A DNA stretch of 46,378 bases, filler included, from Jimgerdemannia flammicorona (lineage: Eukaryota): the NCBI GenBank assembly GCA_003990765.1. It is 2 parts of 2 records of this genome, joined end to end, with 100 filler letters (N's around TTAATTAATTAA, not from the genome) between each part and the next. Parts side by side here need not be neighbours in the genome. Positions count along the whole stretch, not along the records: positions 1 to 23,139 come from RBNJ01001152.1; 1 more part is not named here. One strand, 5' to 3'. Within the stretch, counting starts at the first letter, position 1. Each line of letters opens with the position of its first letter. A program made the translations under genes and the position numbers. Below, in pieces: positions 193 through 25,030 of the stretch. Below the pieces are notes generated by a model. That model saw only the letters and a list, made by a program, of their open reading frames with translations, was not told where the DNA came from and ran no database searches.

Positions 193-195
<3 letters not shown>

Positions 196-1119
196 AGATG
201 TAATCTAAGAACTACTCTTTCTAGATAATAGTGCTCAAACCAAATGAGTCAATTCAAATCAAATCTGGATTCAATTTGTCACATGACAGTTTGATCTGAA
301 TCTCAAATCCAAAGTTATCTAAATCAACTTGAATTAATCCAAATCACTCCATCTGAATTGTCCCATCTGAATTACTCATCCAAATTACCTCATCTGAACC
401 ACACCATCCAAACCACTCAATCTGAATCACTTAATCCAAATCACTCAATCTAAATCACTCAATCTGAATTACTCAATCCAAATCCTGCAATTCAAATCCT
501 CCAATTTGAATCCTCCAATTTGAATCCTTCAATCCAAATCCTCATCCAAATCCTTCAACCAAATCCTCCAATCTAAATCCTCCAATCTGAATTCTCCACA
601 TGACTCATATACCAGACATATCTACATATACAATACACATACACATATAAATACACACACATATACATACAAACATATGTTGACAGATCAGTCTTCAATA
701 GTTCACAGTACCAATAATGCTTCAAGTTAAATATCTCTGATAGTTCCACACCTTCCATGTAATCCTCACTCCAAAATCTGACAATATTGTACTAAGATAG
801 GAGATGATATTGTTTGTAATTATTGCAGGTAAAAAATTAAGATATATCTATTGATATAACTGATACTTTTGTTTAATACACACATAATACTATTTCATTC
901 ACCCCCATAAACTGCACTAGCCAGAAGTTCAAAATGCTTGATGGTATAACTTTGAACATATATTGATATATAAAAGACAAGCACTCTGACAAAATCAAAA
1001 AGAACAGGAAGACAAATAAAATCAACATCCAAGCTGTGATGGGTATGTTTATCTAATTGTCTGACCATTTCTGTACCAACAACCCTATTTAATCAAAAAT
1101 ATTTAACCATACTCTTTAG

Positions 1120-4100
1120 CAGAATTTCGAAATCAGCTCATTTGCTGGATTGTGTACAAAGACCAGCCATTTACAACCATCAAGAGTGATCAATTGCACA
1201 GTATCTTTGGTCTCCTCAAGTATGATTTATATTTGCCAAGTATCAATACTATTCGCAAAGATGTCCTGAAGGACAATCTCCACCAGATATTTCAGGTAAA
1301 ATAAGGGCAGCACTATGACCTTTGCAAGCTAAATTATATATATATTTTTATAAAGTGCTCACCAATTTAACCTCACATTCAATAAGCAGAATTCAGCAGG
1401 CAAAATTTTATTTATAATTGACATATAGATATCTCCCAATGCAATTTTATTTCTGAGCATTATCAGTTATTAGATTGACCTCAATTGGTAGCTTAAATCT
1501 CTCACCCTTGACTTTGTCAAACTTGCTGGCCCTCATTCTGGAGACAACATTGCAGATGCTTTTATTAGCTGGAGTATTAGAAGAGATGGCAGCCCTCTGT
1601 AACTATGTCCTTCTGAATGGAAAGTGGATTGGCGAGCAGGACTTGGGGCTGGTGGCCTTATTGTTCAAAGATAAGGGGTGAAGAGAGGACTGGAAGAATT
1701 GGAGGCTGATCATGCTTCTAGATATGGACAGGAAGATAGTGATTAAGGTGATTGTTGCAAGGTTACAGAAGGTGACCCAACAGGTTCTGGGTGAGGAGCA
1801 GTGAGGCTTTGTGGGAGGTTGGCTTATCAGGGATGGGTGCATGGCATCATTGAGGGAGCCCAGGCCTGTAGACTGGATGGTCGATTGGTCTTCTTGGATC
1901 AGAAGAAGGTATATAACTGTGTTTAGTGAGTATGGCTTGGCAAGGTGCTGGATAGAATTGGTGTTCCTCCAAGGTTTCAGGCTTCTATGTTGAGTTTGTT
2001 GGAGGGCAGTAGGGTGGCACTGTTGTGTAATGGTCACTGGGGTTTGGCATTTCCCTTGGGAAGAGGAGTTCCTCAGAATGATCCACTGTCTCCTATCTTC
2101 TATGCCCTTTTATTGGAACCTTTGATGGATAGGATTCATTGAAGGGTGGCAGGGCTCTCTATATATGGTGTGGTGTGGAAGGTGGGGGCCTTTGTGGATG
2201 ATATGATAGTTGGACTGGGTTCAGTAGCGGATGTCGAGGCACTTAAGGAGACAGTGGAATGGTATGAGGGGCACTCTGGGGCAAAACTCAACTGGTATAA
2301 GTGTGAGACTATGGTGTTAGGGAATAGACTGGTGGGAGGGGATGTCATTGGAACAATTGTCCCCACTGGAGAGGTGGTGTGGTATTTGGGTATCTTTCTT
2401 TCGGTATATGGATCTGTCTTGCCACAAGTGTGGTGGGAGAGGAGAGTGGCTATCTGGGGAGAAACTCTTAGAGATTGGGGGGGTCGCCACATCTCCCTGG
2501 CAGAGAGGATGTTGATTCTGAATGTCTACTGGTTCCCCAACCTGTAGTATGTGGCCTACCACCTTGACTTCCCAGCTTGGGTGGTGAAGAGGCTGACAAA
2601 ATTGGCTAGAGATTGGATTTGGGCAGGGAGGAGGTCCCAGATCAGCTGGGAGACTCTTGTAATACCAGTGGTTAGGGAAGGCCTTGGCCTAGTGGACTTC
2701 TCTAAGTGGCTGCACTGCCTGAGGGCTTGGTGGTTGAAACAGACTGTTGAACTGCAGGGGGGAGGATGGGTGCCACTGCTGCAGAAGGTGTGGGAGGTGA
2801 GGTTCTCCCCTCAGGGGTCCTCCAGAGACTTACTCTCACTGGTGGGCCTGACTGGAAGCCACTGGCTTCAGTATAAGGGCTCTGGTGGGGGGTGGTGGAG
2901 GGGGCACATCAGATAGGACTGCACTGGCAGGATAATGAGGGGGAGATGCTGTGGGGTCCAGCTATGTGGTGATGGGACAGACTCCTCCTGGGGAGTGTCC
3001 CACTTGCTGAGTTTGATATTGGTGATGGAGTGGAGTGTCAGCAGGGTCTTAGACAGGATCTCTGGCTGAGTAGCTGGCAGGCCATGGAGATTGGAGAGAA
3101 GTGGGACTGGGCAGGTGTCTGGTTATGGAGTGTTGAGGTGCAATGGTGGCTTTCTCCTAAGTTCTGGGTAGTATGGTGGAGGCTGCTGAGGAGGAATGTC
3201 ATGTTGAATTTCCAAGCTGGCCATCTGGTGGAAGGGGGCCATTTCGATTGTGAGGAGTGTTATAATGTAGGGTAAGTTGGGGGTTTTGTACAAACACCTG
3301 AACATTGGCTGGGAGAGTGTGAGGTTCTGGGGGACTTTTGGATAGTGGTAGGGAATCAGCTGGGTGTGGAGAGGAGACCAGATGGAGAGTGAGGTCGCTG
3401 GGAGGATCTGGAATCTCAGCTGGTGGGTGGTTTGGGAAATGGTTGGCTCACTTTAGGGTGGGTGTTAGCAGTATGAGTTGGGTTGGCTGGACACTGGCTT
3501 TTTGTTTTTGAGAAGGGGCGACAGATGGGTTTGCGGGAGAAGCTATTAAGGTGGGAGGGGTTGATGGGGGACATGCTGACTGGGTGGTGGGTGGGTTGGG
3601 GGCCACAGAGTGGTAAGCATCATCACCTGGTGGAGGGTATATGTGACCAGAGTAGTGGGCAGGTGGAGATGGTGTTAGACAAAGTGGTCTTTTACCACAA
3701 AGGGGTAGGAGGGTGGGGCCCCCCTAGGGGGATTGGATAGAGTTGGGTATTGTGTATTATTTAGATGATAGATGGTGGTTAATAAAGGGAGAAGTCCAAG
3801 TGACTATAAAAAAAAAAAAAAAAAAAAGATACTTTTATTAGCTATATTCAGGAGCTTGAGATCACAACCAAGGTAAAAAAAGGAGGGCTTGCCATCAGGT
3901 CAGTATTTTGAGAGAGGTTCTAAAATAAAACAGATTTTATTGGTTATTTATTTTTACATAAATTTGCTAACTGAATATTTCAAGTACAGATTTTGGCAAT
4001 TAGGATAGATAATGCTACAAACAATTCAACATTTTTCCAAGTTTTAGCAGCCAGCCTCAAATAGAAAAACATGGTCTTTAGTATAGAAAGCTGCCATGTA

Positions 4101-5500
4101 TGATATCAGGTCCACATACTGAACCTCGCTGTTCAGGACTATCTTATACATATAGACCAAACATCTGAGAGAGGAGGGGTTCTGAGTATAATTTTCAAGC
4201 TACACAAACTAGTTATATCAGTCTGATCATCCCCACAATGATGAGACAAATTTGCTGTACAGTGTAGGACAATTAGTTTAGCCCCAAAAGAGCTTATATT
4301 GGACATCTATATATATTGAAACTCAATATTTGCAATGATCCAGCACATGCTGGAGTTTGCTATGGTATATATTCTTTTTTCTTTAGTTGGCTGAAGCAAC
4401 TTGTTTTAGATAATAGAAGATTTTTTTTTTTTAAAAAAAAAAAAAACCAAAAAAAGCCAATAGATTTAATGGTAGCTGCTGATAAGGAAATACAGAGCAA
4501 GACTTTAGGTGAAAGCAAGTGGGATGTACTTAGGAATGTTACCAGAGTTTTGGAAGTAAGTAGTGATTGCTCTGGCTCTATACTTATTTTGTCTGTCTCT
4601 GCATAATGTAATACCTCACCACATATAACTACCAGTGTTTCAACAATTGTATGAAGGATATAGTCAAACAAATGACCCCAACAATAAGCTCTGCAATACC
4701 AGTATACAACCTTCTGATTGACCAGCTAGAGGATAAGCTCAAGGACAGGCTAGAGGGTTGTAGTGATTTACAGTTAAGTCCAGATCAGAGAGATGCTGTA
4801 GAGGTTGCTCTAAGCAAGCTCAGAAAATACTACTCCAAAACAGATACCACTATATACTCAATCAGTACAGGTATGTTGACATGTAGTCATTGTTTCTTCC
4901 AAAACAGAAAAATCCCTGCAAAATCTCACTCTCTTTTCTCTAAACAGTGCTGGACCCATGCTTAAAGCTACAATACCATAAAGATCAGAGCTGAGACCAG
5001 TACTTCATTGAGAGCACCAAGCAGGCCATAATCAAAGTGTACTGGAAAAACTATGTACTACTGCAAGGTTCTGACTGAAGTCTGGACAAATATACCAAGA
5101 GATTCCTCTTGTCTCATATTTACTTCAGCAGAAAGAGGAAGAGGGAGCCATCAGTGAAAGAGCTGTCATCAATAGATAAACTTACCATTTACCTCACCAG
5201 CAACTGCATGATCCTGCCAGAGGGTGTAGAGATACTCAACTGGTGGAAGGTGGGTTATCAGACAGGCATTGGGCCAATTTAACCCACCAATCTAACCACC
5301 ACTCTACCCACTAGAGTGTGCAGCTACATTGAATGGACTTCTCCAGCCTCTATAGTATAGCTCAGGACTATCTGATGATTCCTGCCTCCAGTGCTCCCAT
5401 TGAGTGGGTGTTCTCAGGTAGGATGGACCTCTTTGCCCCAAAGAGATGTATACTGAATACTGAGACAATCTGGGCTTATATGTGTCTGAAGTCTTAGTGG
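1120..5500 (+). pseudogene. hAT transposase pseudogene (intron-containing, interrupted by a LINE)
   Basis: Readable motifs: LICWIVYKDQPFTT, LDFVKLAGPHSGDNIADAF, DNATNN...HILNLAVQ, KLRKYYSK, ILNWWK, and the hATC dimerisation segment AQDYLMIPASSAPIEWVFS. Many stop codons. The start is approximate. Confidence 0.85.
1571..3826 (+). mobile_element. 5'-truncated LINE (L1/Tx1-like RT and C-terminal region), pseudogenised
   Basis: RT motifs DWKNWRLIMLLDMDRK, GVPQNDPLSP, FVDD and VWYLGI. AATAAA at 3781 and a poly(A) tail at ~3808-3826. 17-bp TSD AGATGCTTTTATTAGCT (1554-1570) / AGATACTTTTATTAGCT (3827-3843). Confidence 0.92.
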
Positions 5501-5699
5501 GGCTTGGACTCAGACTGCTAAAATTCAGTGGGTTCTGGAGTAAAATTCAGTGGGTCCTGGGGGTTTGCAGATAAGTTGGTTGGCCTTGTGAAATATTTAA
5601 CACCTTTCAAAAATAAAAGGAAAAAAAACCTAAGAACTTGGCTCAGAGTTTATAGCCCAAGTGAGGCAGTGGTCAGCAGGGTTGGTGGTGGTGGAGAGA

Positions 5700-6600
5700 G
5701 CATGCAAAATTTGCAGTCCTCTACCAGCAGCAAGGGGCAGCCCCAAGCTATCAGTGCCCAGGTCGGTGGACAGATTGGTGGGTGCAGAGTCACAGAGAGA
5801 GCTTAAAATTTGTGGCTCTCTGCTGGCAGCAGGGGTAGCCCCAAGCTACAAGTATCTGGGACTGGGGGGTTGGTGGAGAGGGAGGTAGGCAGAGAGAGCA
5901 CACAAAATTTGCAGCCCTCTGCCAGCAGTGAGGGGCAGCCCCAAGCTATTAGTGCTCAGATCAGTGGGCAGGGTCAGTTGGTGCAGGGTTGGTGGAGGAA
6001 ACATGCAAAATTTATGGCCCTCTGCTAGCAGCAAGAGGCAGCTCTAAGCTACAAGTATCCAGAATAGGCAGGGCAGGTGGAGGGGCTCCCCCCAGCAGCC
6101 TGTGTCTGGGCCAGGGGTTGGTGGGGTTAGCAGAGAGAGTACACAAAATTTTCAGCTCTTTAGTAGCAGTATAGAGGTAACCCCAAGCCACCAAGGAGTC
6201 TGAGTCTAGGGTGGAGAGTACTTCTGGTGGTTGGAGGGTACTTCTGGCAGTCAGAGGGTGCTTCTGGCAGTCAGAGGGCATTTCTGGTAGTCAGAGAGTA
6301 CTTCTGGCTATTGAAGTCCACCACAGATTTAGGCTCCATTACTAGTTCTAGTCCCATGAGCACCCTGGCCCTGTGCTGCAGTACCATACTAGTAGTACTA
6401 CAGAGTAGAGCCAAGGAGCCAATAGGGCCCAGCATAATGGCTAAACTAGTACTACAGAAGAGGCACCTGGCTGCCAGCCCAACCTGTATAAAATGACTGC
6501 TAAACTCTTATAAAAGATTGCCTAACCCTTATAAAAGATTGCCTAACCCTCACAAAAGATTGCCTAACCCTTATGAAACATTACCTAACTTTTACAAAAA
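5700..6600. repeat. Degenerate tandem repeats inside the hAT element
   Basis: Recurring CAAAATTT..CTCT..AGCAG..GGGGCAGCCCCAAGCT units, CTTCTGGCAGTCAGAGGG units (~6240-6310) and TTGCCTAACCCTTATAAAAGA units (~6500-6590). Confidence 0.7.
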
Positions 6601-7849
6601 CTGCTCCACTCTCCAGTCCCAGGCCTTGATGAGCCTGTCATCTGTTGTGAGTGTAATGACTGTTGTGTCCAAGCTCTCCTCAAAGGCAACAGTACTGTAG
6701 TGGTTGTGTGGTTGAAATAGGATGGCTGTATTGGCCACAAACGGGACCCTAAAACTATAGGTAAGGTCATAACAGACTCTGCTACTATTCTCTCAGATTG
6801 GGCCCTTCCTTTCTGGGATATAGAATATTACTGGGGTGATATTGTTATCTGTATATATGGGTAAAGAAATGTTGTACCTAATGTATCCTAATGTGATATA
6901 AGTATACAGTTGGGTGAACTCTTGGCCCAGAACCTCATACTGTCAGGCTGTACTGATGGATGCCTGTTCTTGGTCCAGCCTTGGGAGCCCTGGCTTGGAA
7001 ACCTACCAAAACAGACAGCATCTGGTCAGTCTTTTTTGTGTGTAGGGGGGCAGAAATCCCCCAGGCCACAGAAATCCCCAAGGCTGCAGCACTCAAAAAA
7101 GGCAGAGCTTCTCACCTCATATGGCATGCTAAATTATGCCAAGAATATATATATATATAACCATGCTGAGATCACCACCAAGCTGGCCTGCTATATACTC
7201 TACCAATCTGCTCAAAGAACCCCAGATCACAGCTGCCATCACTGCATAGACTGTGTTTTGCTCACATACAGTTTGTTCTTCAATGGTACTTCTAAAGTTC
7301 CAGTAGGGATATAGAATCTTGTGCATCTCTGAAATTGTATCAAAAAGAGTATATCAGTGAAGAGTGTGATTATTTGAGAAGAAGTAAAAAAAAAGAGAGA
7401 TGAGTGTGGGGGATTTCAGAACTCTGGAACCCACCCTTCACCAGTGTTGCAGTATATCCAATTTCCATCCATACCCCCCCTTCTTACTTTTTTTGCCCCC
7501 TCTTTCCAGCCACCCAGTATTTGACATAATTCTCACAAATCTTATTGATATGGTAGCAAAACTTATTGCCATAGAGGTTTCTTACCACCATCACAACTAC
7601 CTCTCCATATTTGTTAATAATAATATAGTTCTCTTTGTCATTGGTTACTCCTGCTGGCCAATGGACCCCTTGGTCAAGAATGATTGACTCTGATTTGAAT
7701 GTAGACCCCCAAGCCTTGATGATTACTCATGCTGAACATCTTGCCCTTGAATTTCTCTATTTGATCAGATACTAGATATGGTTGAACTCAGGTAACTTTG
7801 AACTCTCCTTTTCAATGGAACTGAGCTCTGATCTGAAGGACCAAGATAA

Positions 7850-7995
7850 TTGTATGGATAGGTTGTATGTAGATAAATTGTATGCAGATGAGTTGCATGC
7901 AGACAGATTGCATGCAGATGGATTACTTACAGATGGGTTGCATATAGACAGATTGCATATGGATGGGTTGCATGCAGACAGGTTGTGTGCAGGTG
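7850..7995. repeat. 15-bp degenerate tandem repeat (GAYRGRTTGCATGCA-like)
   Basis: About 9 units, visible directly. Confidence 0.7.
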
Positions 7996-8992
7996 TCATG
8001 TGGGTGTTTTAGAGAGAGACTACATAAAAAAAATGAAGTTAAATAAAACATAGAGATAGATATTTCAGAAAAGAGCATGAGTGAGTAAGTTGAATACTGA
8101 TGAGTTGCAAGATTACTCATGAAGGCTTACTTCTGTTCCTTTTTAGACTTCTGCCATATGATACATTGACTCAATAGCTCAGCCACCAAAGGCATGTCCT
8201 GCAACATCTGCCAGCCTTTCTTCATCTTGACCAGATATTGCAAATAAATCAACAGATCTCACCATAGAGCTGTGGACTCTAAGAAAAGTATGAGGTGAAT
8301 TGGACCATACTGGGGAAAATTAAAAAAAATAAAAAACAAGTAAATAAGTGGCAGCAGAATAAGCAACCTACATCTACTATCAGCTGCTCCAAAAAGGCCA
8401 CTACATATATAGCTGTGAGGTCTATGAATTCAGATGTCTGAAGGGCTACTGTGAGTTGTTGCCAGAATTCTCTCTCATCCCCACCATCACCACCACCATC
8501 ACCACTGCCATCACCATTGCCACCACTATTACCACTGCCATTACTCCTTTATCTCTCAATGAGCAGCTTGTATACTACCCATATGAGAAAGAATCTAACA
8601 TTATTAGCAGAGAGACATTTCTATCTTGAATACTCCCTCTTTTGATGATCATTATAGGGTAAAAATGAGTAGACTGGACCAATGTATGATTAAGGGCTGC
8701 TATTTTGTTTGCTTGTAATTGTTGCAGGAAAGAAAAAGAACAAAAAAAAAGAACAAAGAAAGAACAAAAGAAGAGAGAGAACAAAAGAAAGAGTGATGTC
8801 ACCAAAGTGTGGCAGGAAAAAAAAAAACAGAGTTGATGTCACCAAAGATTTTATATGATTAATTCAGATAGATTAATCCAGATGGATCAATCCAGATTAG
8901 ATCACAAGACCAATCAGAGTTGATTCAAATCTATCATATGATGAATCTGAATTGAATCTCATCCAGATCAATTCCATCTATTCAGAGCACTA

Positions 8993-11900
8993 CTAGATAG
9001 ACTTGGTAGCTTGTCTAAATTAGTGAGTTCTATAATCTAAGATATAGTCTACTTTGTATTCTAGTTACTATTCAATAATTACTAGATCTAGAGATAGTAT
9101 GGTTCTTTCTTCAAAAATATTTGAGATATATAGCTAAAGTTCAGATATATAAAATACTGAATAGATTTTTTTTAGTATTGCTGAGAGGTCCAACTTATAT
9201 ATAATAGATCTAGATTTTTTAAGAATATTAAATAGTCTAATATAGTAGAGTCTAAGCTTCTTTTTGGAACTTATATTACTCAGAGTCAGATACTGAGTAC
9301 TAAGTAATACTTGTTCTCTTTTTTCATAAATGACTTCTTTTCTATTTTTGTCAGAGTATCCTACTTATATTCTTTATACTTCTATAAGAGCATTTTATAC
9401 TTACTGAATATTATCTTATATGATATAAGTAATACCTTAAGCTACTAGTACTATAGTTTAGGTAATAACTATAGAAGTTTATAGATATTATTTATAGTTT
9501 AAATAGAATGATACTATCTTAGTACTTATACTTGAGCTGTTATTATATATAAATTTAGTTAAAATTAGCTTTTTGTCTCAATTATTTTACTTATAGCTAT
9601 AATAGATACTAAATATCTACTTTAGAGTTCAATTGGTTCTTTCTGTCTGACTATCTATTTGTAGATAGTATGCTATAGATATTTTTAGTTATACTCCTAG
9701 ACTCTTGAAGAGTGCTTGCCAAAAGTTACTTGTAAATTTTATATCTTAGTCTAAGATAATTACTGATAGTAATCTATAAAGACAGAATATATTATCAATA
9801 AACAGCTGTGCTATTTCTGGTACTGTTGTAGTAGTAGTTATTATATATAATAAAGTAAGTCTACTTGTTAAGATGATCAATGAAGATAATAATTACATCT
9901 CTTCTTTTCTTAATTTTTAGCAACTAGACAATAAAGTTTATTCTGATATAGTTCTAATTTCAGATAAGAATTAATAATAGCTATAGAGTCCTAGCTAGTA
10001 TCTAGTTACTAGACTTATATCTTTGATAGATATTATAAGATACAATATAATTCTTAATGTCAGATATTATTTTGAATCAGTAAAAGTCTCAGACAATATG
10101 TTAGTATATCTTGTCAAATCTCATATATTCAGCTATAGGTATATTATATAGTTCTTATAGGATTTATAAGTAGATAGAAGTGTCAGAGACCTAGAGTCTT
10201 ATATTATTAAAGTATATATATCTATTCTGTACTGATACATTCTTGTAGATCTTTTTTATAATATTACTACCTTCTTTGAGAATTTATTTAGTAATTTCTT
10301 ATATATTGTAATAGTGATCTCAGAATGGTGATATTATTATAAAAGATAGTCTTTTCTTACAAACCACCAGATTGGAGTACAAGAAGATCATATAGTATAA
10401 CTTATCCAAACTATAAGATAAGCAATAATGATCAACTATGAGTCATAATAACTACAAGATAGACATCTTAAGAAATATAAAAGAAGGACCAGAAACTATA
10501 GTAGCAGTAACTCCAATAAGACTCACTATAAATAAAATATTTGCTACTTACCAAACCACAAGATCTAGGAACTACTAAGGTTTCTCAGTCTAAGAAAAAA
10601 TGTTCCAAGACATCAGAAGAGCTATGAAGACTCATACTAGAAGAATTCCTAGTCTCAACTTAAGTACTAGTGACTCTTACCACTTTACTCTCTACTGTTG
10701 TGAAATAGAGACAAGGATTACTACTGCTACTAAATACCTCTGGATGTGGTAGAAATATGAAATAAGAAATCTCCTTTGCTGAGAATTCCCCCAGACCAGT
10801 CTCTAAGAGATATAAGATGACATCTCTATGAATGTATATAAATTGAGAGTAGCCAAAAAGATCTATCAGGTCTTCAGACATGCATTTTGGTCAATTCTCA
10901 ACTTGGAGTATACTGGAGTCTCAGACTTTAAGAAATTATCAGCCCACTATATGGATATACTAGAAGCCATAGTGGCTACAGAAGCCCAATCCACCATCAC
11001 TCTCAAAAGTGATGAGATAGAAGAGTTCTGGAATTCTATCCTTCAGGACAATCTGAATTAATTTCTGTAAGGATTAATCTCAGTATTTCAAGACCCCAGT
11101 ATCCAGATCAGACCTTCTCAAGATCTCACCTTTGTCTCCTACTTTGTAGAGGAAAATATCATAGATTAGAGAGCCTCAGATCTCTTTCTCACCACTATTA
11201 AACATGATGATATCATCAGCAATGATGTCATTCCACTAATCAATACATGTGAAATAAATAAAATACTTGTAAAAATGCTTGCTGATCTTATTTTCTTTGA
11301 AGATATCTTATCTCTGACCTCTAGCCTTAATGATAGTGATGAAGACAAAGCCCATAGGATTTTGAACATTATACTCTAATTTATTTATATAACTATTTGT
11401 TTGAATACTTAAATATTCTGATATTCAGACCTTATATAACTATCAGAAATTATTCCAGTATTCTGATCTTATATAACTAATTATACAGGCACTTAAATTT
11501 GTACTTACAATCTGAAGTTTTTTGTATTCAAATATCTCATTTGATTATTAAATTTTATATTTAGCTTTATATCTTAGCAACTATTGAATTACATTTTGTA
11601 TAAATACCCCTCTCATTTTCTTTGAAATAAAGTAAAACACTCAAACATTCAAGTATCCAACTACTCAAGAGTACAAAAGTTCTAATCCTCTACTCAATTT
11701 CATATAAGTAAATTTAAGAAACAATAGAGTTTAAAGATAAGAAGTTTGAGAACTATAAGACCTTGGAAAGGTATTCTAATAGAACTTACTTATAAGAAAC
11801 TTGTAGTTAGTCTAAGAGATATACCTTGAAGAGAATCTGATATACTTGGAGAACTTAGTATCCCCTATGTGACAATATTGACATCCTTGGTATACTTCTT

Positions 11901-14900
11901 CTTAACTTCTTCTAATAGGCTAGTGATAATGTTACTAATTATAGTAAGATTATCTTTCTGAGTACTCTGAGAGAGTATATCAGCTACTTCATTCTTGGTT
12001 CCAGCAATATGCTTGATTTTAACATTAAAGAGTATAAGGATCTATATCTATTAAGTCTGTCTTTCTATGAGAATTAGCTATATCTAAATATATCAGAGAA
12101 CTTGATAGTCTGTCTATAAGATAAATATTTTACTAAAGAGGAAATATCTTTATTCTTACAGAGATCAGATAATAGTGAGAATTTCTTATCTTATATAAGT
12201 ATAGTTTCTTTTATATTCATTTAGTTTCTGAGATAGATAGGTGACAAAATATTTATGTTTAGTTAGGGTAGCTCTAATAGTAATATTTGAAGCATCAGTA
12301 GTAACTATGAAGAGTTCTGTTAGATCAGAACAGATTAAGATCAATATATTAGTTAGTATTCTCTTTAAGGATATTTATGGCTATAGTGTATCCTTCTGTT
12401 TATTCTTTTTCAATATTGGTTCTCTTCTTGGTAAGACTTATGAGTGAGTCTACAATTATACAAAATTCTTAAATAAATCTTTTATAATATCTTACTAATC
12501 TATTGAATCCTTATAGAGACTTAAGAGTCTTCAGAATTGATCAATTGCAGATTACTTAGATCTTTTTAAGATTGATAGCAATACTATTTTCTGAGATAAT
12601 ATATCTTAGGTATTCAATCTCCCTCTTAAAGAAGTAGTATTTTTTTTTTTTTTTACTGAGAGCTTATATTTACAGAGTATACTAAAAACTATTTATAGAT
12701 ATTATTAATAGATGATACTGCTTATACTATATATCAGGATATCATCTAGATAGACTAGAATGAATACTTTGAGGTATTTATAGAAAATGTCATTTATTAA
12801 TATTTGGAAGATTACTAGTATATTAGTAAGGCTAAATGGTATTATATAGAATTTATAATACTTAAATCTTATTTAAAAGACTGTCTTTAGGATATCCTCT
12901 TCTTTGATGTAAATTTGGTAGTATTCAGATATAAGATTAATGAGTGAGAAGATCTTGGTCTTATATACTTAGTTAAGTAGTTTATTGATTCATAGAAGTA
13001 TATATTGATTATTGATAGAGATCTTATTGAGTACTTAATAATCTATATATAATTATGTGGAGACTTTTATCCTTTTTATAGATAAAGAGAATAAGTGCAC
13101 CATATAGTGATTTCAATAGATGAATAAGGTCTTTGTTTAATAGTTCTGTTAATTATTCTTTGAGGATCTCTGGTTCAGATTAAACTAGTTAAGAGATTTT
13201 ATAGTAGGGAGGATCAGAACTAAGAATGATCTGAATGTAATATTCTATTGCTCAGATAGATAGCAGTTCTTAGAGTTCTTAGAATATATCTTCATATTTC
13301 TCAAATAGTTTTAGAGATTGTCCTCCTTATCATCTTCCTCCTTCAGAAGTTTAGAGAGTTTTTTATTATCTTCTTCTAAGATCTCTTTAACTATATAGAT
13401 ATATTAGTCTGATTTTTGAATCAGCTTCTTTATCTGGATAGTAGAGATAATATCACATCTAGGGTTGGTTTTCTTTTTAGTATACTCAGATTATAACTTA
13501 ATATCTCTTAGGAAAATTACATTTATTTATCAATTAATGTGAGAATTTTTCTAAGTAAGTCAGAATTTTCCAAAGTAAGATTATATTCCAGAAGATACAC
13601 AATGTAGAAGGTTTGTCTTATGGTATAATCTCTGAGTTATAAAAGTGTATTTTTGCATATTTTGAAGAGTTTCTATATTGTTCTATTTTAGAATATAGTA
13701 ATATTTTCTTCTGAATTCTTTTGTATCTTAAGATAGAATTTATTAGTAGTTTCTTTATCAAGATAGTACTTATTTGCTCTACTGTCAATAAGGATATCAA
13801 CAGGACTTCTTTTGATTTTTTCTTAGAGATAGATATATTCTATATTGTCTTCTTATTAGACAGTAATTATTTCTGAAGTAGTTTCTTCTTCTCAATTTTA
13901 TATATCTCTATCTTTATCATTAATATTCTTGATTTCTTCATCCTATCATTCTGAAATAGTTAGCTTATACTTCTTAGATTCAATACATATAATATATTCT
14001 CTTATATATTCAAAATAGTATATCTTAATTCCATAAGAATATCACTCTGTAGGAACATATCTATCAGTAATATACTAATACTATTTCTGATCCTGATTTT
14101 GAGGTTCTTCAATACAGATAATCTTCTATACCTTGGTCTTTTTATTAGCCTTGTCAGGATGTTTTTCTGTTGATCCAAAGGCTCTTTCTTCTCTATCAGA
14201 TGGTAATAGTTTATTTATTTCTTCAACTTTGATATTATTATATATTACCTCAATAATAACTTAGGTGATTTATTTTCTACATATGATTTCAACTGCTTTT
14301 TATTTAGTATTATATAGTAGGATCTTGATTTCATCTTTGAATTCTTGGTCTACAACTCCTCTAGCTATATGGAGTCTCTTTTTCTTAGCCAGACTACTCC
14401 TTTCTATCAGACAGATATAGATTTCTTTGGGGACTTCTATTTTAACCTCTATGCTAATAGTTGCTTGCTTGTCTGGTTTAATGGTTACTTCTATGCTTGA
14501 GTAGAGATTATAGCTAGTATCAGATTTATATACTTTATCTGAGATTTTTACAGTAATATAAAATCTCTTAATCTTGATTTTCTCAGTAATTTCTTTGAGA
14601 TTATCTTCTATTATAGTAATAGTATATAAGAAGAATAGTCTTTTATTTATATTGGTCTTCTTATCAGAACATTTTCAGAACATATATATATTCTTTCTTT
14701 TTGCAGTAGAAATATACTCTTTTTTTTATGAGTTCTTCTATTTCCTTATTAGATAGTTTCTTAAATCTATCTTATAGTCTTGAGAACTTATTTCAGAGTT
14801 TGTACTTCTTCTTAAATTGATGTTGTTTATCTCCTTTATTGTTATTTCTATTGTCTCTTAATCTTTGAGCTACATATAAGGATAATATATACTCTAGTAA

Positions 14901-16700
14901 TAGCTTATCCTAAGTACTATTACTTATGTGGACAATTATAGAGTTATTCTTATTCTTGAATTTTTTCTAATAACTATCCAAAGATAGTATTAAAGAAGTA
15001 GACAGCTCAGGTTCTATTTACAGTCTATTTTTATTAGCTATATTCTACTCTTATAATATTTAGAAGAGTTTCTAGTCTTATAGTAAATGCTTCAATATCT
15101 TCTTTTCTATTATTATAGAATTATAGATTCTTGAGCTTAGTTCTAACTTCAGTAATATGGACAGAGTTACAGAACTATTGGATAATTAGTTCCTTTAAGC
15201 TCATAGTGACTAAATAGACTTTATGGTTAGGATAATTATTATCTTCTTTACTTATATTAATTTTGATATAGGTTTCTTGATAAGAGAGTATACTAATAGA
15301 TTATATTACTACTGAGCAGCTATATATATAAAATAAGTAGTAACTTTCTCTACTTATAATTCTGCCATTATATAGAGATCTTTAATCTCATAATACTTAT
15401 TATTATTAAGAATACTATTTAAATTTCAATTGTCATTTTATCTATAAGTATGATAATTAGTATCAACTTGGTCTATAAATATTGTTACTTGATCTACTTT
15501 ATCTTTGAAGAGAGTAAGGTAGAGGCCTTTTATTGGTTTATTTATTTCAATACTACTATATATCTTATTATCTACTAATATCATTCTGCTATCTCTATTA
15601 TTTATTTGGTAAGATAGTTGGAGTTCTTTTTCTATAATATATTGATCATAGTTTAGGATTAGTTCTTCTATAATATTACTGAGGTGGGTGAGTCTATAGG
15701 CTAGTAGTAGTTCTATAATAGTACTGAAGTCATTAACATTAGGTTCAGGTGTCTCTTCAATTATCCTCTTAGATCTAAATGATATGATAGAGGTCTTGCT
15801 GGATCTGATAGCTTGTAGTTTTTGTTACTGAATTATTTTCAATTATATGTATAGAGAATTTGATAATAAAGTGAGATTTCTTTTAATTGATATAATATCT
15901 CTTATAGTTTAGGAAGATCTTAACTTTATAATAGTAATTATTGAGGAGAAGGTTCAGAAAATATTTACTTGTAGTCTCAATAGATTCTTATATATTTTTT
16001 TTATAGAGATATCTACTGACTAGCTTATTGAATTTCTCCTTAAGTTCAGAAGTATAGAGGACTTCTTTTTTGAGTATAAGAAAGATGTTAAATACTTCTT
16101 AAATAGTTTTATTGTTAAGTTTGTCAAAATTCTCTTAGCTAGTATAGATTTTAGTCTACTTAGTAATAATTCTGTTAAATTCTTTAGCTTGAGTCTGGGG
16201 AGTATTTAGAGTAAAGGTACTTTTTGATTATTACTAATAATATTAGCAATATTTACTGATTCTGATTATCTGTAGTAGATTTTTAAAGAAAGATTACTTA
16301 TGAGTAAAAAGTAACTGCTTCTACTACTAAATTATAATAAAACTATATATTGATAGAATTAATATATTATAAATAGTCAATAGTAACTGTCAGTTCTAAG
16401 TTCTATATTCTTAAAGTTACAATTATATATTATAGTAGAGTTTAGATATTGCTTTCAGATTCTTATACTGGAGATAATATCATACTTATATCTCAAGCTG
16501 ATTAGGCTCAAAATCATTAACAAGTCAGATCTGAGAGTTCTGTAAAAAAAATACTACTTTATTTTTATATTTGGAGAAAGTAAAGCTAATATTTCAATAT
16601 ATTCAGTATAGAGAGTATTTATATATATTTGATACTATGACTAAATATAATATACTGAGTATATTTATATACAGTTATACTACTTTAGATAGTTATAACT
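8993..16700 (-). mobile_element. Highly degenerate Ty3/Gypsy LTR retrotransposon (gag-PR-RT-RH-IN, probable chromodomain)
   Basis: Minus-strand remnants in Gypsy order: zinc knuckle YFYCKKK (~14700), protease ILIDSRA (~13780), RT VFILVYLDDILIY (~12745), RNase H FIVTTDAS (~12295), integrase HHCC region (~10000-10150), SIAYYLQIDSQTERTN*TL (~9625-9680) and chromodomain-like EYKVDYILD (~9040). It probably continues at 193-228 beyond the hAT. The LTR (~16330-16700) is tentative. Confidence 0.88.
10361..11705 (+). mobile_element. Unclassified repeat fragment inserted in the Gypsy pol region, with an LTR-like 3' part
   Basis: Interrupts the RH-IN linker, is less AT-rich and has plus-strand ORF remnants. 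TATAAATA and AATAAA occur near 11600-11630. No TSD identified. Confidence 0.4.
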
Positions 16701-17300
16701 ACTAGTCAGAAATTCTATAAGAATTTCTATAAGAATTTTCATAAGAATTTCTATCAGAATTTTCAATAGCTTTTATAGATATATAATAATTTATTATAGT
16801 ATCTACTATATTACAATATTTAGTTATTTTATAATATAAATATATAATAAGAAAATATCTTATAACTGCTGAAAAAATATATTAAAACTTATATTAAAAA
16901 ATAAAATAAAATAAAATAAAACCTAATTAATAAATAAGAAAATAAAATTAAAATAAATTTATTTTATTAAATTTAAATACTTAAAAATTATTATTAGTAT
17001 TTATAATTAATTAATTTTTAATTAATTAATTTTTAAATTTTTATAATTATTAATTCTAAAGTATTAATATTATTATTTATAGTATTATAATGAAATATAT
17101 TATAAATTCTAATAATAAAAATATTATTATTACTTTTTAATTAACTTTATAAATTTTATTAAACTGTTGAGAATTAGTTAAGATATTTAATAGTATAGTT
17201 ATAATTTTAATTATCTTATTTGTTAAATATTTTCTTATAGTTAGATCTCACTATCTTTATATCTTATTCCTCTGTAGTAATCTTTATATTTATCTAGATC
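16700..17300. repeat. Extremely AT-rich relic sequence at the repeat/gene boundary
   Basis: Long stretches almost lack G and C. TCTATAAGAATT repeats at ~16710-16760. Confidence 0.6.
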
Positions 17301-17520
17301 AGTGTCATGTGCTTGTCCAAAATTAGATTTTTTACAACAAAATACTTTGCATGGTCTTATATATATATAATACAATGAAACTTCTTGCTATTATGACATG
17401 TTTTAACACTGAGTGAGGCATTGATGTCGCGGATCGTCAACTTCCCAAAGAGTGGTGACGGTCAATTTCCTGTAGATTGTCAAACTGGTTAAACCGACAA
17501 CTCTTCCAACGACAACCACA

Positions 17521-18423
17521 ATGGAACCAGCCGCCTACCCGGAACCCCAGAATATCATGTTCAAGGAGATCTTTAATTCTCTCCAGTGCCAGATTTGCCT
17601 GGACACCATGAATGACCCACGCACCCTCCCCTGTGGCCACAACTTCTGCCGGGAATGTATCAACAACCTGGTCACCGCGCAACGTAACCGCTCGTCAAGC
17701 CTCCAGTGCCCGAATAACTGCCACCCGACGACCCGCATCGACCTCGACAACGTCAAGAATCTTCCCCGAAACTTCACCCTCTGCAGCATCATCGAGTCCA
17801 TGAACCAGGTCAAACGCTGCGAGAGCCACGACAACTACGTCGGCTTTATTGATATGGCCGACGGCAAGCTGCTCTGCCAGCACTGCCTCAAGAAAGAGCA
17901 GTTCCGGCTCAGTTTCGCAAAGGTCCGTCTGGTCACACAAGCCGACCCATCTGCCACACCCTCGACCACAGTAAGGATTAGGATTCCGAGGCTCTCCCTG
18001 CCCCCCGGGATTCTAACCCTCTCCAAAGCCGAGGAAGTCGTTAAATCCAACCTCGAAACCCTCATCGTCCAGTCCAAGTCCTTGGTGGCGAAAATGAAGT
18101 CTCTGGAGACGCAGTTCCGCAACGACATAAAAGCCATTCGCAGGAGCGCTGCTTCCCTTTCCAAAGCCATCGCCACTATCTCCAAAACCGCCGAAGACAC
18201 CTCCATCATGCTCAAAGCTCAGTGCGGCCAGGCCGCTCCGGAAAAGCTCATTCCGTTCCTCATATCTGCCATGCAGCTTCAGTCCTCTTTTGCCTCAGAC
18301 CTTGACGCCGCCTCCAAGACGCTTGACGCCGCAAAGAACCTCAAAAGTCCTTCCAAAATTCCTCGTTACAGGTCCAACCTTGTCTTCTCTCCCCGTAAGC
18401 TTGAGGTCGCTGGACCTCTTTAA
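17521..18423 (+). CDS. RING-HC finger protein with B-box-like motif and coiled coil (TRIM/RBCC-like, putative E3 ligase)
   Basis: CQIC-x11[10 protein letters not shown]16-CPNNC RING, then C-x2-H-x7-D-x2-D-x4-C-x2-C, then a heptad-rich helical region. 300-aa GC-rich ORF. The internal exon structure is uncertain. Confidence 0.85.
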
Positions 18424-18494
18424 GGTAACTTGGGCCGATGATATATCAGTCCCACAAAGATCTACGGGAAGCCGGCAAAGTATTTGGTTGGAAC

Positions 18495-18645
18495 CCAAAG
18501 TGTACGAGCCTGCAGTGTACGAGCCCGAAGTATACGAGCCTGAAGTATACGAGCCTGAAGTATACGAGCCTGAAGTATATGAGTCTGAAGTGTATGAGTC
18601 TGAAGTATATGAGGCTGAAGTTACGGGCCAGAAGTATATGAGCCA
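18495..18645 (+). repeat. 15-bp tandem repeat (GAAGTATACGAGCCT)
   Basis: About 9 units just downstream of the RING gene stop. Confidence 0.9.
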
Positions 18646-18699
18646 GGCAACTTGTATTATTAAACTAGTGAGAATTTGAGGAGTTTAATGCTGATATTA

Positions 18700-19100
18700 A
18701 ACACATTCAGCATTGCCTTGTGATATTTCTTCTTCTTTGTATTATTTTATTGACAGAGTGTTTATATGTATAATATCATCATATAGAATTTTGTTATTTC
18801 TTTTTCTTTTCTTTTAAAATATAAATACTAACTTTTTAGTAACATAAATATCTAATGCTTAAAATGTTTAACTAGCTCTGTAGTTATATTTTATTTAATA
18901 TTTCTACATAAGTTTATATTGTAAAAAGAAAAAATATATAGTTATCGAGATAAGATAATACAACATAATTATAATAAAAAAGAAACACTAGTAGTAAAGC
19001 CTCCTAGCATCCTACATTTCCAATCTTTTTACAATATATGAACTCAATAAACATGAAATACATCCGACTTGAGTTTATTTTTATCTCAAGTACTCTATTG
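18700..19100. repeat. AT-rich degenerate repeat relic
   Basis: Abrupt AT-rich, CpG-poor block between two GC-rich genes. Confidence 0.45.
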
Positions 19101-19597
19101 ACATCATAATGTAATATTCGTACATCCCCATGTCATCACGCACAAGGCCATTTCATTCGGTTGATTCACAACCATCGCCAAGGCCCGATGCGAAGGGTTA
19201 TGCCGTAATCCGAAACTCCTCCAATAAAATCGTCGTGATCACAAACGTCAGCTGTGTAGAAACTGACCCCTGTCACCACGTCGAAGCGTAAGAATTCGAG
19301 TGCCCCGCACTATTATGTAAAGCTCTCTTGTAGCAACGTGCTGCCTGTGCATATTATATTTCATGTAAAACCGGATCGGCATCCGTTTTTTAAATGTTGC
19401 AGGGTCATTGTCAGCGCCTGCTAACGCAAGCATCCACTTCCAGCTACGAGTGTAACATATAGTAATCGACAGGGATAACCTAAACGCGGAATTAGAACCC
19501 CCTGAACCTCAATTTGTAGCCTGATCCCCCTTATACTGTTGACCCCCTTGCCCTCTCCTTCCCCTTTCATAACCTTTCATAATTTCAAAACAAAGCC

Positions 19598-20788
19598 ATG
19601 TCGGAAACCGGTAGCAACGGATCGGGGACGCCTGATGTACCCGAGGGGTTCAAGTACATCCATAATCCCGTTAGTAACAGCAAATATCTTTTGCCCAGCG
19701 ATAATGAGGAGATCAACCGGCTCGACTATCAGGTATCAGCGTCTCTCCCCTTGTTGTTTAATCGAAATATTGTTGGTTTATCCCGGTAAATTATTTATTC
19801 CCTTTCTTCGTGGTGCACCGTAGCATTACGTGGTTCGGTGAGCAAGGAAGTTCAATCTCTGCGGAACCAGATGAATTGTCCCGTACGACTTGCGTACCAC
19901 AACATCTGACCGTTCCACCGTACTTCCCCAGCCAACTCCTCCACGGCAACTTCAATGCCCCCATGGAAAAAGCCCTCGAGCGCGGCATCAAGGTTCTAGA
20001 CGCCGGCTGCGGCAGTGGCCGCTGGGCACTCGAGCTAGCTGAGGCGTATCCGAATTCCATTTTCGTTGGCGCCGACATGAGAAACATGTTCCCGACCTCC
20101 AACGTCCCGCCCAATTGCACCTTCATTCAGGCTAACACCCTGCACGGACTACCCTTCCCCGATGGCGAATTCGACTACGTCTTCCAACGGTTCCTCGTGC
20201 TGGCGTACACCCCCGATGACTGGGCCACAGCCACCAAAGAACTTGCCCGCGTGACGAAATTCGGGGGATGGCTTGAGCTGTTTGAGGGGACGCTTAAGAT
20301 GGAGAGGCCGCCGGAGCGGTATGGAGAGTTTTATGATGCTGGTATGTCTTGATTACGGTACCATACTCCGTGTTTTTTATTTTTATTTTTTATTTTTTTT
20401 TATACCTTCTTCGACGGCACCGCACCGTTCACTATTGTTTTCTCTTGCGCCAAAATTAGTCCTCGCCGCCACCCACGCCCGAGACATAGATATGGAACTC
20501 GTGCAGAAGGTTGGCGATTTTCTCGTGGCCAACAACTTCATCCATATCACCGCCGACTATATCTCATGTCCAATAGGGTGGCACGGCCGGGTTGGAAATC
20601 TCATGTGCCAGAACACGATTGCGGCGCTTTTGGCGCTCAAGCCCATGGTAATGCCGCACATGAAGACAATGACCGACGAGGAGTACACGGTCGTGCTGGA
20701 GGAGATGAGGGGAAAGTTTGGGAAGAGACAGACCTTCACCAATGCGCCGTATACATTCGGGATGAAGCCGTTCAAGTTGGATATATAA
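19598..20788 (+). CDS. LaeA-like class I SAM-dependent methyltransferase, 4 exons (19598-19732, 19824-19837, 19932-20341, 20460-20788)
   Basis: YLLPSDNEEINRLDYQH motif across the exon 1/2 junction, motif I VLDAGCGSGRW, LPFPDGEFDYVFQR, and ELARVTKFGGWLELFE. All three GT-AG introns preserve frame. Confidence 0.92.
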
Positions 20789-21237
20789 TGTGTGCTTGGG
20801 GGGCGAATTCGAGGTCTATTGAAGCACGCTAGTTAGATAGTGATTAAACATTATGTATGATACAATGTAGCAAAGTTTGCACGGCTACATAAATTCTGGT
20901 GTAAACGGCGATACATGGCAATATATAAACGTTCATCCTTATCCCAGCTTCTGGAAGTGTCGAGCTCCGTCATCCCTTTCCTCCTCATCCTCACAAAGAC
21001 CTACGGCCCTGGTTTCGAGATAAGTAAATCTGCAGGGCAGTTTAAACGATATCCCGGGACATCCTTCCTCGACGTATCGATCACGATCATCGAATAAGAA
21101 ACCGTCGATCCAAGTGCTCCATCGCCTGATCAGTATATACGTCGTCGATCATTTATTTTACGCCTGACTGTTTGTCCTTTACAACTACCCAAACGCTCTC
21201 TTTTCACTTGTAACGAAGATCCGCACTGTTAAACGCC

Positions 21238-22059
21238 ATGACCCAATCTCGCAAACATGGCAACATACCGGATACATACGGCACTGTTCACTCAACAACA
21301 CAGACAGAGGTGACCGACTGCGGCACCGACAGCGCACAACCTCTCGTCGCAAAGCCGACCCCTAAGCCCGTCTATACCTACCCTCAAAACCCCTTCCCCA
21401 CTTATGTTCTTTCCGCCCTCATCGTCGCCCTGGCCATCATCCTGACGGCGTCGCCGAACCCGACGACGTGGTCGACCTTCCTCGCCAACCTCACGCTATC
21501 GCACCCGGAGCGCGGCGAGGCCGGCTACGGCCTCTTTCTGATCCGCGGCCACCACCAGACCGTAGCATTCGCCTACGCGTGGCGGCTCATCAACCCTACA
21601 TTCTGGTCCCGGTTCACCAGCTGGTCCGGATACGTCGTGCATCAGCTGGGTCAGTTCTACATCGTCGCACAAGCGCAGCTCGCGAAGCGGCGGGGAGAAA
21701 TCTCGTGGGCGGGGACGCTGAATAAGTATGGTTGGCAGATGCTTCAGCTTAACATACTGATGGTCGCTTATAAGTTATTCCAGGGGCATATCTGGTACGA
21801 TGGCACTGCGCAAGATTTACCTGGTAAGTGAGGTGGACCCAAATGAGTTCGTAGGTTTTGGGTAAACGGCAATATGAGCTCGACTCGTCCTCTTCGTTTT
21901 TTTCTTTTTTTTTCCGCTGTGTCTGATCTACAGAGGGAACTAGCTTGGCCAGTGTGGCGATGATTTTAGTCTTGGATTTACTTATGGAGCTGCCAAGGTA
22001 CGTAGGGATTTTGCCAAATGCACGCCTTTTATAAACGTGGCATTTTAGAATATTGATAT

Positions 22060-22134
<75 letters not shown>

Positions 22135-22986
22135 CATTAGTTGGACAGACGTGGTCTTTTCTTTGGGAACGTACGATCTCTCGCTGGCGGCATTGCGGCT
22201 AAGGATATGTTCGAGTTCCTCAGCAGATACCATGCCTATCTTTTTAGGTACATATACGTGCACAGATATTCTTCATACAATATCGTTGTAACCTCAATAT
22301 CACCTCATTAAAGCCCCGATATTTTCACGACCTAAACCCCCAGCTTCGGCACTTGCTACACCTTCCACTATCACCCACCGGAAGCGACGCTCGGCCACTT
22401 TTCAGGCTTCTTCTACATGTTCCTTCTCTTCTGGCAATCGTCTCTTCTCTTCCACACCTCTCACCGCAACCACACCTGGACGACCGCCCTTGAGTGCACC
22501 GTCTGGCTGCACGGGTTTCTCACCGCCATCTTTCAGGGCGGTCACGGCTGGCTCATCTTCACCTATGGCTTCGCTACTATCTTCATCTTCACCCAGTTCT
22601 GGGGTCTCCCCTACGTCCAACAGCAACGGGCCCTGGGGAACAAGCTGTTCTCCGTTCCGGCCGTGCTGGCCATCTACGCTGCGCTCGTCACGCTCGGTTT
22701 CGGCCTATCCGGAAATCTGAGTCGCATCTTTTTCGTCACTTTCATACCAACCTCCGAGTATGCTTACCTTGTCTTCTATTGGTTGGCCTTCCTGGCGTGC
22801 TGGAACATTGTGCGCGGACTCGAACGTGTCGGAGTACTGAGAGAAGATATAGACGGTAGGCCCGGGTGGGCCAAGGTGATTGTAGTGGTGGCGCTGTATT
22901 TCGCCATCAACTTGGTCGTTCTGCTCGCATATTCGGTCATGCTGGGCGGGCCGTTGAAGATTTATAACGACTACAATAACGAATAA
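21238..22986 (+). CDS. Uncharacterised multi-pass membrane protein, 4 exons (21238-21823, 21934-21997, 22149-22247, 22344-22986)
   Basis: Frame-preserving GT-AG introns and many hydrophobic segments. Motifs WYDGTAQD, ELPRRGLFFG, RYHAY, TFHYHP, GHFSGFFY and LE-x4-HG. Confidence 0.88.
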
Positions 22987-23139
22987 ATGCGGTGCGTAGC
23001 ATCGATCCAGCAGTTTTGGCTGCATAAAATCATCAATGTTACCGGTGCATGATATAACCACTTAAACCTGGACTTGGCTTTATAATCGAAGATAGAGTTT
23101 GTAAGGCCTAATACGTGTCACTGACATCATGGAATCAAA

Positions 23140-23239
23140 NNNNNNNNNNNNNNNNNNNNNNNNNNNNNNNNNNNNNNNNNNNNTTAATTAATTAANNNNN
23201 NNNNNNNNNNNNNNNNNNNNNNNNNNNNNNNNNNNNNNN
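23140..23239. other. Artificial contig linker/gap (N44-TTAATTAATTAA-N44)
   Basis: Exactly 100 bp and symmetric. The central 12-mer puts stop codons in all six frames. Confidence 0.95.
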
Positions 23240-23384
23240 TCTATTTTATAAAATTAAATTCTCAACCATCGATCGTAACAAGCAGCAAATTGAAAATTTC
23301 TAAAAATAATTCTGGTACTGCTGAGTTGTGACAGTGGACGCTTTAGTGAACCCCCAGTCTGGGACCCACAGTATTGTTATGACG

Positions 23385-23531
23385 TATTCTAGCCAATGGA
23401 ATGGTGATGTATTCTAGCCAATGGAACGGTGACGGCTTCTAGCCAATGGAACTGTGACGGCTTCTAGCCAATGGAACCGTGGCGGCTTCTAGCCAATGGA
23501 GCCAATGGAATCGTAGCGGCCTTGGCTATAA
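23385..23531 (+). promoter_or_regulatory. Tandem 25-bp CCAAT-box array and TATA-like element upstream of the IFI27-like gene
   Basis: Unit TTCTAGCCAATGGAAnnGTGACGGC. CCAAT at 23393, 23418, 23443, 23468, 23493 and 23502. TATAA at 23527, about 65 bp before the ATG. Confidence 0.65.
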
Positions 23532-23592
23532 CACCACAACAAAAACACAACACACACCACAACCAAATTAATCTCAACCAACCAACTCAAGA

Positions 23593-24072: not shown

Positions 24073-24108
<36 letters not shown>

Positions 24109-24997: not shown

Positions 24998-25030
<33 letters not shown>

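Follow-up and report, generated by a model that had tools for sequence, protein, structure and literature searches.

The window and its CpG-free transposons

We analysed a 46,378-nt stretch of the Jimgerdemannia flammicorona genome (hereafter the window), which joins parts of the contigs C1152 and C1153 at two runs of N (23140–23239); the two halves are not contiguous. Its first 17 kb are filled by dead, nested transposons: a hAT DNA transposon interrupted by a retrotransposon resembling a LINE (long interspersed nuclear element), and a Ty3/gypsy retrotransposon harbouring a solo long terminal repeat (LTR) of a separate family. Genes encoding a RING protein, an S-adenosylmethionine (SAM) methyltransferase and a kinase follow (Table 1). 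A preliminary description of positions 193–17300 had proposed hypermutation akin to repeat-induced point mutation (RIP), biased towards CpA, in a probable non-Dikarya fungus. We find that these elements have lost cytosines in a graded order of contexts, by a process that is not classical RIP and that works like repeat erosion linked to 5-methylcytosine (5mC) and the methyltransferase DIM-2. The host does belong to Mucoromycota (Endogonales) rather than Pezizomycotina. The top named matches of the methyltransferase encoded in the window were from Endogone and Jimgerdemannia, and one genome exon was 100% identical to J. flammicorona proteins; an exact look-up of three open reading frames (ORFs) of the window gave no match. 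A search of sequencing runs listed two, which contain 0.23 and 0.14 of the words sought, and no RNA run.

Within 193–17300, 15 CpG dinucleotides were observed, as against a mean of 514 (minimum 462) over 200 block-wise shuffles. None occurs at 8990–17427, the first beyond this block lies at 17428, and the observed-to-expected ratio (o/e) is ~0.04 over 193–8990 (the hAT/LINE half) but 1.02 in the genes at 17430–34370, in agreement with the initial statement that the transposons lack CpG while adjacent genes keep it. The Ty3/gypsy parts have a GC content of 0.24, a TpA o/e of 1.13–1.29 (0.76 in the gene region) and a CpA+TpG o/e of 0.65–0.70 (1.06 in the gene region); CpC/GpG is depleted (0.44–0.80) and CpT/ApG enriched (1.68–1.85). 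In the hAT/LINE half, by contrast, CpA/TpG is in excess (1.29) and TpA scarce (0.81), the composition to which CpG decay leads. For this reason the standard RIP indices are positive over Ty3/gypsy only (TpA/ApT of 1.33 and 1.13, with substrate indices of 0.65 and 0.88) and not over the whole interval (1.02 and 1.25).

Mutation spectrum and sequence context

For each of four families we aligned 30 copies, namely the window copy and the 29 best loci per search, of 576 to 12,103 candidates. Transitions made up 92% of pairwise differences in the solo LTR, 89% in Ty3/gypsy, 82% in the LINE and 93.5% in the old hAT family. Sorted by context, the C-to-T changes of five repeat families followed the order CpG > CpA ≥ CpC >> CpT. 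At columns with a shared 3′ base, C/T differences at CpA/CpC/CpT amounted to 0.52/0.52/0.14 (LTR), 0.68/0.68/0.27 (Ty3/gypsy) and 0.22/0.17/0.09 (LINE); when polarised by column majority, C>T frequencies were 0.193/0.177/0.029 in hAT and 0.114/0.085/0.032 in the LINE, where other changes were much rarer (T>C 0.018, C>A 0.004). CpA and CpC did not differ in hAT (p = 0.27), and CpA was higher in the LINE (p = 3e-5). The 3′ base was the main determinant, with a weak effect of the 5′ base: alignment columns followed by a fixed A or C mutated 2.5–7 times more than columns followed by a fixed T. At sites that had once been CpG, CG remained in 0.1–7% of copies and TA was found in 8–36%, which requires a second hit in CpA context.

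Non-CpG transitions are thus context-biased well beyond AT drift, as had been claimed (p < 1e-35 for CpA against CpT at column level, in hAT and in the LINE). Neither a Pezizomycotina host nor a lack of context bias, the two outcomes the preliminary description had named as fatal to it, was found. The bias is real yet not CpA-only: the anticipated CpA excess exists over CpT, but CpG leads and CpC is also mutated, being level with CpA in three families and lower in two. CpT sparing is the constant feature, and the notion of a CpA-specific, RIP-like process is not supported.

Two further contexts were considered and rejected. A CHG context, as for plant CMT-like enzymes, is ruled out, with CAG no higher than CAA and CAT/CAC highest; so is a TpCpG preference (LINE: ACG 0.85, CCG 0.76, GCG 0.71, TCG 0.71). 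Spreading could not be gauged clearly from the LTR flanks, since most of these are other transposons.

Individual changes first deduced from an integrase peptide fared unevenly in the ten gap-free copies, among 11 covering the stretch. ACA, the assumed precursor of ATA, is present in 4/10, and CAT, the assumed precursor of TAT, in 1/10. CCA, in contrast, occurs in none (CTA in seven, TTG in two, CTG in one), so that a former CpG codon is the better fit here. In 4/10 copies a GG>GA change, in CpC context, is seen at the TG>TA site as well. The TG/TA difference between the two target-site duplications of the LINE is real, and among uninterrupted hAT copies, 28/29 of which cover the site, 15 carry G and 13 carry A.

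Young and old copies form a continuum

A young hAT-like family, one end of which lies in the window, provides a time series. Its 40 best matches, of 1778 candidates and chosen by likeness to the window copy, are ends of 240–600 bp, many at contig ends. They are 99–100% identical and keep 12–15 CpG per 240 bp, many within CpG-free flanks. C>T changes in these youngest copies numbered 17/1386 at CpG, 5/1452 at CpA, 3/1152 at CpC and 0/570 at CpT. Older copies were retrieved by a pattern search in which the first CpG had decayed; of its 179 matches the first 30 were taken and 28 scored against real young copies (L218, unaligned, and L241, with 78 other changes, were excluded). Here the counts were 241/785, 132/1017, 48/684 and 18/412, respectively, with CpA above CpC (p = 8e-5). 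These copies form a continuum from untouched to saturated, along which CpG loss correlates with CpA/CpC loss (rho 0.78).

The same family represents a recent burst despite the decay process. Since the young family is still nearly intact, the decay does not stop such bursts; it wears elements down slowly instead of blocking them.

Departures from classical RIP

The transition dominance (82–93.5% in four families) is that expected of RIP, but CpA is not the main target. Nor are there one-strand clusters: single events fit in three of four families (the LINE is taken up below). The observed strand-share variance was 0.62 in hAT, 0.70 in the LTR and 0.92 in Ty3/gypsy, compared with simulated values of ~0.8 for single events, 2.3 for bursts of three and 3.9 for bursts of five (~3.5–4.5 for five or more), and same-strand adjacency equalled the single-event value in all four families. 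Of the ten older copies with 2–11 events, only one was one-strand. An apparent spatial clustering (z 1.95, 2.7) shrank when the load per copy was held fixed (hAT 0.431 vs 0.429; LINE 0.374 vs 0.363 ± 0.007; Ty3/gypsy 0.342 vs 0.329 ± 0.007).

Near-identical repeats also survive, as the 40 young ends attest. The two copies of an inverted gene duplication in the window, 90% identical, keep most of their CpG (39 and 48); they differ by 44 transitions and 30 transversions, and their differences at CpA/CpC/CpT stand at 0.085/0.10/0.06. A dispersed tandem family, at 66–83% identity, keeps CpG in 19/19 other loci fetched. A DNA search with the kinase region for close gene paralogues returned only itself and gives no test. 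The claim that the change is confined to repeats is upheld, genes and young transposons being spared, within a limit set by the gene duplicate that is discussed below. Because the hits are independent and single, the young hAT ends keep CpG and older copies form a continuum, the process is not classical RIP.

Anatomy of the window

Table 1 Features of the window (positions count along the whole stretch)
Feature	Position	Strand	Remarks
Dead hAT DNA transposon	229..8992	+	8-bp terminal inverted repeats (TIRs); LINE-interrupted; PF05699 at 5333-5494, E 4.5e-7
17-bp LINE target-site duplication, left copy	1554..1570	+	TG kept
LINE-like retrotransposon, 5′-truncated, poly-A tail	1571..3826	+	Nested in hAT; 10 CpG remain
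17-bp LINE target-site duplication, right copy	3827..3843	+	TG->TA, a CpA-context C>T on the opposite strand
Ty3/gypsy retrotransposon, heavily decayed	8993..16740	-	dUTPase, reverse transcriptase (RT), RNase H, integrase; many stops; CpG 0
Integrase peptide of the preliminary description	9620..9679	-	Inside Ty3/gypsy
Solo LTR, TG...CA, 4-bp target-site duplication	10307..11874	+	Nested in Ty3 integrase; CpG 0
Very AT-rich, CpG-free margin	16741..17427	.	Ends ~90 bp before RING-gene start
Control: gene-rich DNA (RING protein, SAM methyltransferase, kinase)	17428..34370	.	CpG o/e 1.02
Control: linked inverted gene duplication	23366-24330 + 28630-29715	.	74 differences over 777 aligned bases; most CpG kept
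Control: CpG-rich dispersed tandem-repeat family, undecayed	38560..40130	.	CpG o/e 1.57
Young hAT-like element end, same TIR octamer	46139..46378	+	13 CpG in 240 bp; sits in CpG-free LINE-like DNA

The hAT element is flanked by an 8-bp target-site duplication (221–228 and 8993–9000, one mismatch), and its homology to other copies runs jointly over 229–1568 and 3827–7100+, bridging the LINE insertion. Among the matches listed there are 39 other copies at 82–86% identity. The LINE was classed by RT-like motifs recognised by eye, its poly-A tail and its target-site duplication, two pieces of it having given no Pfam match. Ty3/gypsy, the most AT-rich element of the window, adjoins hAT; its homology to other copies was traced to 16738, with 39 other places among the matches listed (75–82% identity), and it matches PF00692, PF17917 and PF17919 as well as, below its cut-off, PF00078. 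The solo LTR belongs to a high-copy family (39 other places listed, 78–83%; 4308 candidates). From 16800 onward, the margin had no match among the fetched loci.

The dUTPase domain of Ty3/gypsy (PF00692, E 1e-12, 14303–14671, minus strand) lies upstream of the RT region and may be relevant in a genome under heavy cytosine deamination. Further CpG-free islands, with boundaries sharp within tens of bases, are a 0.6-kb relic at 34375–35010 and an AT-rich block with a LINE-like element at 40650–46140. A ~100-bp piece resembling a miniature inverted-repeat transposable element (38368–38470) opens with the hAT terminal octamer and keeps its CpGs. A 15-bp tandem coding-like repeat (18476–18640), situated where the RING gene region ends, grades from CG to TG between its first and last units. 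The inverted duplication comprises a small gene for a Gly/Ala-rich hydrophobic protein, which by eye we presume to resemble IFI6/IFI27-like proteins. The tandem array at 38560–40130 is degenerate, with units of 27–59 bp, at least 19 dispersed relatives and no long ORF.

Methyltransferase and heterochromatin genes

The search for methyltransferase homologues yielded three C5-methyltransferase loci of the DNMT1/DIM-2 type, on C8187 (L035), C11271 (L115) and C3657 (L038). The C8187 product comprises RFD-like, BAH and methylase domains and has Neurospora DIM-2 as its best match in the PDB (9BAQ, 136 bits, vs 92 for mammalian DNMT1; codes of the DIM-2/DNMT1 matches as given in PMC11315935); judging by its sequence, this gene is probably an intact member of the DIM-2 clade, as in Zymoseptoria. 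The C11271 gene is its paralogue, and Endogone relatives exist for at least two of the three methyltransferases (P0123, P0274). PF00145 and two protein queries revealed no fourth DNMT1-like locus, PF00145 matching four places and missing one known gene. Nor did a RID-like locus surface in this weak search, which used no RID query and in which PF00145 missed C11271.

In a tree of 144 of 150 rows, P0121, P0221 and P0274 (the Endogone relative of the C11271 gene) grouped with proteins from Mucorales, Glomeromycota, Basidiobolus and Entomophthora in a single clade, adjoining a large one with ascomycetes as its named members. All rows had been chosen by likeness to P0121, with no true DNMT1 or RID outgroup, and the tree is therefore unable to separate DIM-2 from DNMT1 or RID.

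As for heterochromatin, domain matches point to candidate components of histone H3 lysine 9 methylation (H3K9me) and HP1, the other part of the Zymoseptoria-type machinery: a chromo-shadow domain at two places and Pre-SET at one over the cut-off. The PF12047 profile matched neither the genome nor the controls even though the domain is visible at protein level, and is uninformative.

Further methyltransferase pieces on C58 and C2181, which we take to be DNMT2-like from motifs recognised by eye, lie at contig ends (L037:1268-1521, L036:423-746) and abut CpG-free transposon blocks. L037 also holds a short inverted duplication near its piece.

Proposed mechanism and alternatives

With moderate confidence, we favour heterochromatin-directed cytosine methylation by DIM-2-clade enzymes, followed by gradual fixation of C-to-T changes. 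The enzymes, presumably active, would lay 5mC on transposons within H3K9me/HP1 heterochromatin, with CpG the most methylated context, CpA and CpC less so and CpT hardly at all. Methylcytosines would deaminate singly and passively, and on either strand the T:G mismatches would be fixed as C-to-T changes. Any given copy would therefore decay in a clock-like manner, CpG first (early on at ~3–4 times the CpA rate) and CpA/CpC later, and would end as an AT- and TpA-rich relic in which CpT/ApG survive. Of the options in the preliminary description, it is non-CG methylation and deamination that is retained here, with the methylation itself presumed.

Several observations weigh against this reading. 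The strand-share variance of the LINE family, 1.95 against 0.81 ± 0.22 for simulated single events, allows bursts of ~3 at most, and all four of the youngest copies with two events (4 of 40) carry both on the same strand (chance ~1 in 16). CpC and CpT do not differ significantly in the young hAT family (p = 0.09). In the inverted gene duplicate, 13/43 CpG columns differ by a transition; with such a CpG excess, the confinement to transposons cannot be called absolute. For the C3657 product the scores are ambiguous (DIM-2 123 vs DNMT1 116 bits), and both Jimgerdemannia rows are long branches in the tree, which has no DNMT1/RID outgroup. In Zymoseptoria, more than 98% of Dim2-dependent mutations are reported at CA with CG spared, a pattern its authors read against passive deamination (PMC8016269), and a review has DIM-2 methylating all contexts with CpT preferred (PMC13297926, Table 1), so that CpT sparing would not be general to DIM-2.

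The DIM-2-clade enzymes may instead be active mutators, through promoted deamination or biased non-CG repair, in a slow RID-independent defence rather than a by-product of silencing; we regard this as possible but unlikely. CpA/CpC changes reach ~7 times the CpT level in old hAT and lie within ~2–4-fold of the CpG rate early, the clade has expanded to three loci, and mitotic Dim2-dependent mutation has been proposed in Zymoseptoria tritici (PMC8016269). That species, however, spares CG and barely mutates CC, whereas here CpG goes first and the order equals that of reported methylation levels, as passive deamination predicts. Passive deamination and an active DIM-2-linked mutator are inseparable by these data. 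Equally tentative, and in our view unlikely, is a dedicated Endogonales repeat mutator, independent of RID and built on the three loci of the expanded clade (possibly splitting CG, CA and CC among them), that drives C-to-T change faster than passive deamination. Were a DIM-2 repeat mutator to exist, DIM-2-linked mutagenesis would predate the Mucoromycota–Dikarya split and form the ancestral core of ascomycete RIP.

More doubtful still is a weak or rare homology-triggered premeiotic RIP, of RID type or along a DIM-2 branch, whose many small rounds would have blurred the strand signal. Neurospora RIP clusters are reported to be 91.9% one-strand (PMC7296669), against variances here far below those of bursts of five or more and a single one-strand case among ten older copies. 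The CpG-keeping young ends, the largely intact gene duplicate and the intact tandem family all speak against it, as does, from a weak search, the failure of a fourth DNMT1-like locus to appear. It would account for the very high transition excess confined to repeats, for boundaries that are sharp at the ends of some solo LTRs (L017 and L030, where the first CpG lies 12–39 bp away) and for the strand overdispersion of the LINE and the same-strand doubles.

That the changes arise without methylation, through a cytidine deaminase of AID/APOBEC type or a heterochromatin repair defect with a context bias, we consider very improbable. Transition-only, context-dependent C>T change is typical of such enzymes. 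APOBEC specificity, however, lies mainly on the 5′ side, whereas here the 3′ base weighs most, and the same spectrum marks DNA transposons and retroelements on both strands, so that editing of retro-cDNA is not at work. Least credible of all is that CpG-only methylation decay combines with neutral AT drift, or that an artefact of sequencing is at work. CpG is indeed the leading context, and the standard indices are negative over the hAT/LINE half, but the neighbour effect at fixed A/C columns and TpA at former CpG sites contradict CpG-only decay, and on the same contigs neither genes nor young copies have been touched.

Comparison with known systems

Methylation-linked repeat decay and Dim2-linked CA mutation are already known. 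In the literature searched, of which coverage was incomplete with most subscription papers outside it, we found no description of the present signature for Endogonales. As far as the available parts of the kingdom-wide survey by Badet and Croll go, RIP-like signatures were found in ascomycetes only, on scaffolds over 50 kb (PMC12543289), and J. flammicorona was scored 'no_rip' (supplementary file 12). A strong non-CG C-to-T footprint in such a species is a warning that TpA/ApT-type indices may both miss and mislabel decay of this kind. It also touches the question of whether DIM-2-linked mutagenesis preceded RIP. The context order reads as a fossil methylome and predicts a specific methylation pattern, CG > CA ≥ CC >> CT.

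With RIP in Neurospora and other Pezizomycotina, the J. flammicorona decay shares C:G-to-T:A change in repeats, targeting of CpA and AT- and TpA-rich relics (PMC7296669, PMC4352252, PMC12543289). It differs in having no one-strand clusters, in the large escape of near-identical young repeats and of the linked gene duplicate, in the lead of CpG with CpC joining, and in that our weak search surfaced no RID-like locus. CpT, reported as a second RIP target in Magnaporthe and Botrytis (same sources), is spared. Amselem et al. report CpA, CpT and CpG signatures, and tie those at CpA and CpT to RID (PMC4352252). Tuber melanosporum and Pucciniomycotina likewise have CpG as the leading target, credited to 5mC deamination, and Tuber further resembles J. 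flammicorona in combining CpG with CpA and in its large transposon load; its CpA part, however, is credited to RID, while J. flammicorona has a strong CpC component (PMC4352252, PMC3318451). The TpCpG preference of Pucciniomycotina is absent from the J. flammicorona LINE, where the CpG rate is no higher after a 5′ T.

The nearest relative with a methylome that we found is Phycomyces blakesleeanus (Mucorales), which has a DIM-2-clade gene and 5mC on transposons in CG and CHH; the available text of these reports describes no mutational footprint (PMC11258239, PMC7862722). Phycomyces spares CHG, whereas J. flammicorona mutates CAG about as much as CAA.

The closest parallel is Zymoseptoria tritici, which shares a DIM-2-clade enzyme, restriction to repeats and CA loss with TA gain (PMC8016269). 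Dim2-dependent 5mC on its transposons is reported at 43–61% of CG, 10–22% of CA, 3–8% of CC and <0.01% of CT, the order in which J. flammicorona mutates (CG > CA > CC, CT spared). CA and CC are the non-CG targets in both. Z. tritici is, on the other hand, an ascomycete in which RID and Dnmt5 are present as well (PMC8016269), whereas J. flammicorona has three DIM-2-clade loci and a presumed methylation, erases CpG first and clearly mutates CpC. Because the mutation pattern differs there and the review assigns DIM-2 a CpT preference, the match of context orders is suggestive only. Set against these systems, the decay in J. flammicorona departs from classical RIP and works like DIM-2/5mC-linked erosion of repeats.

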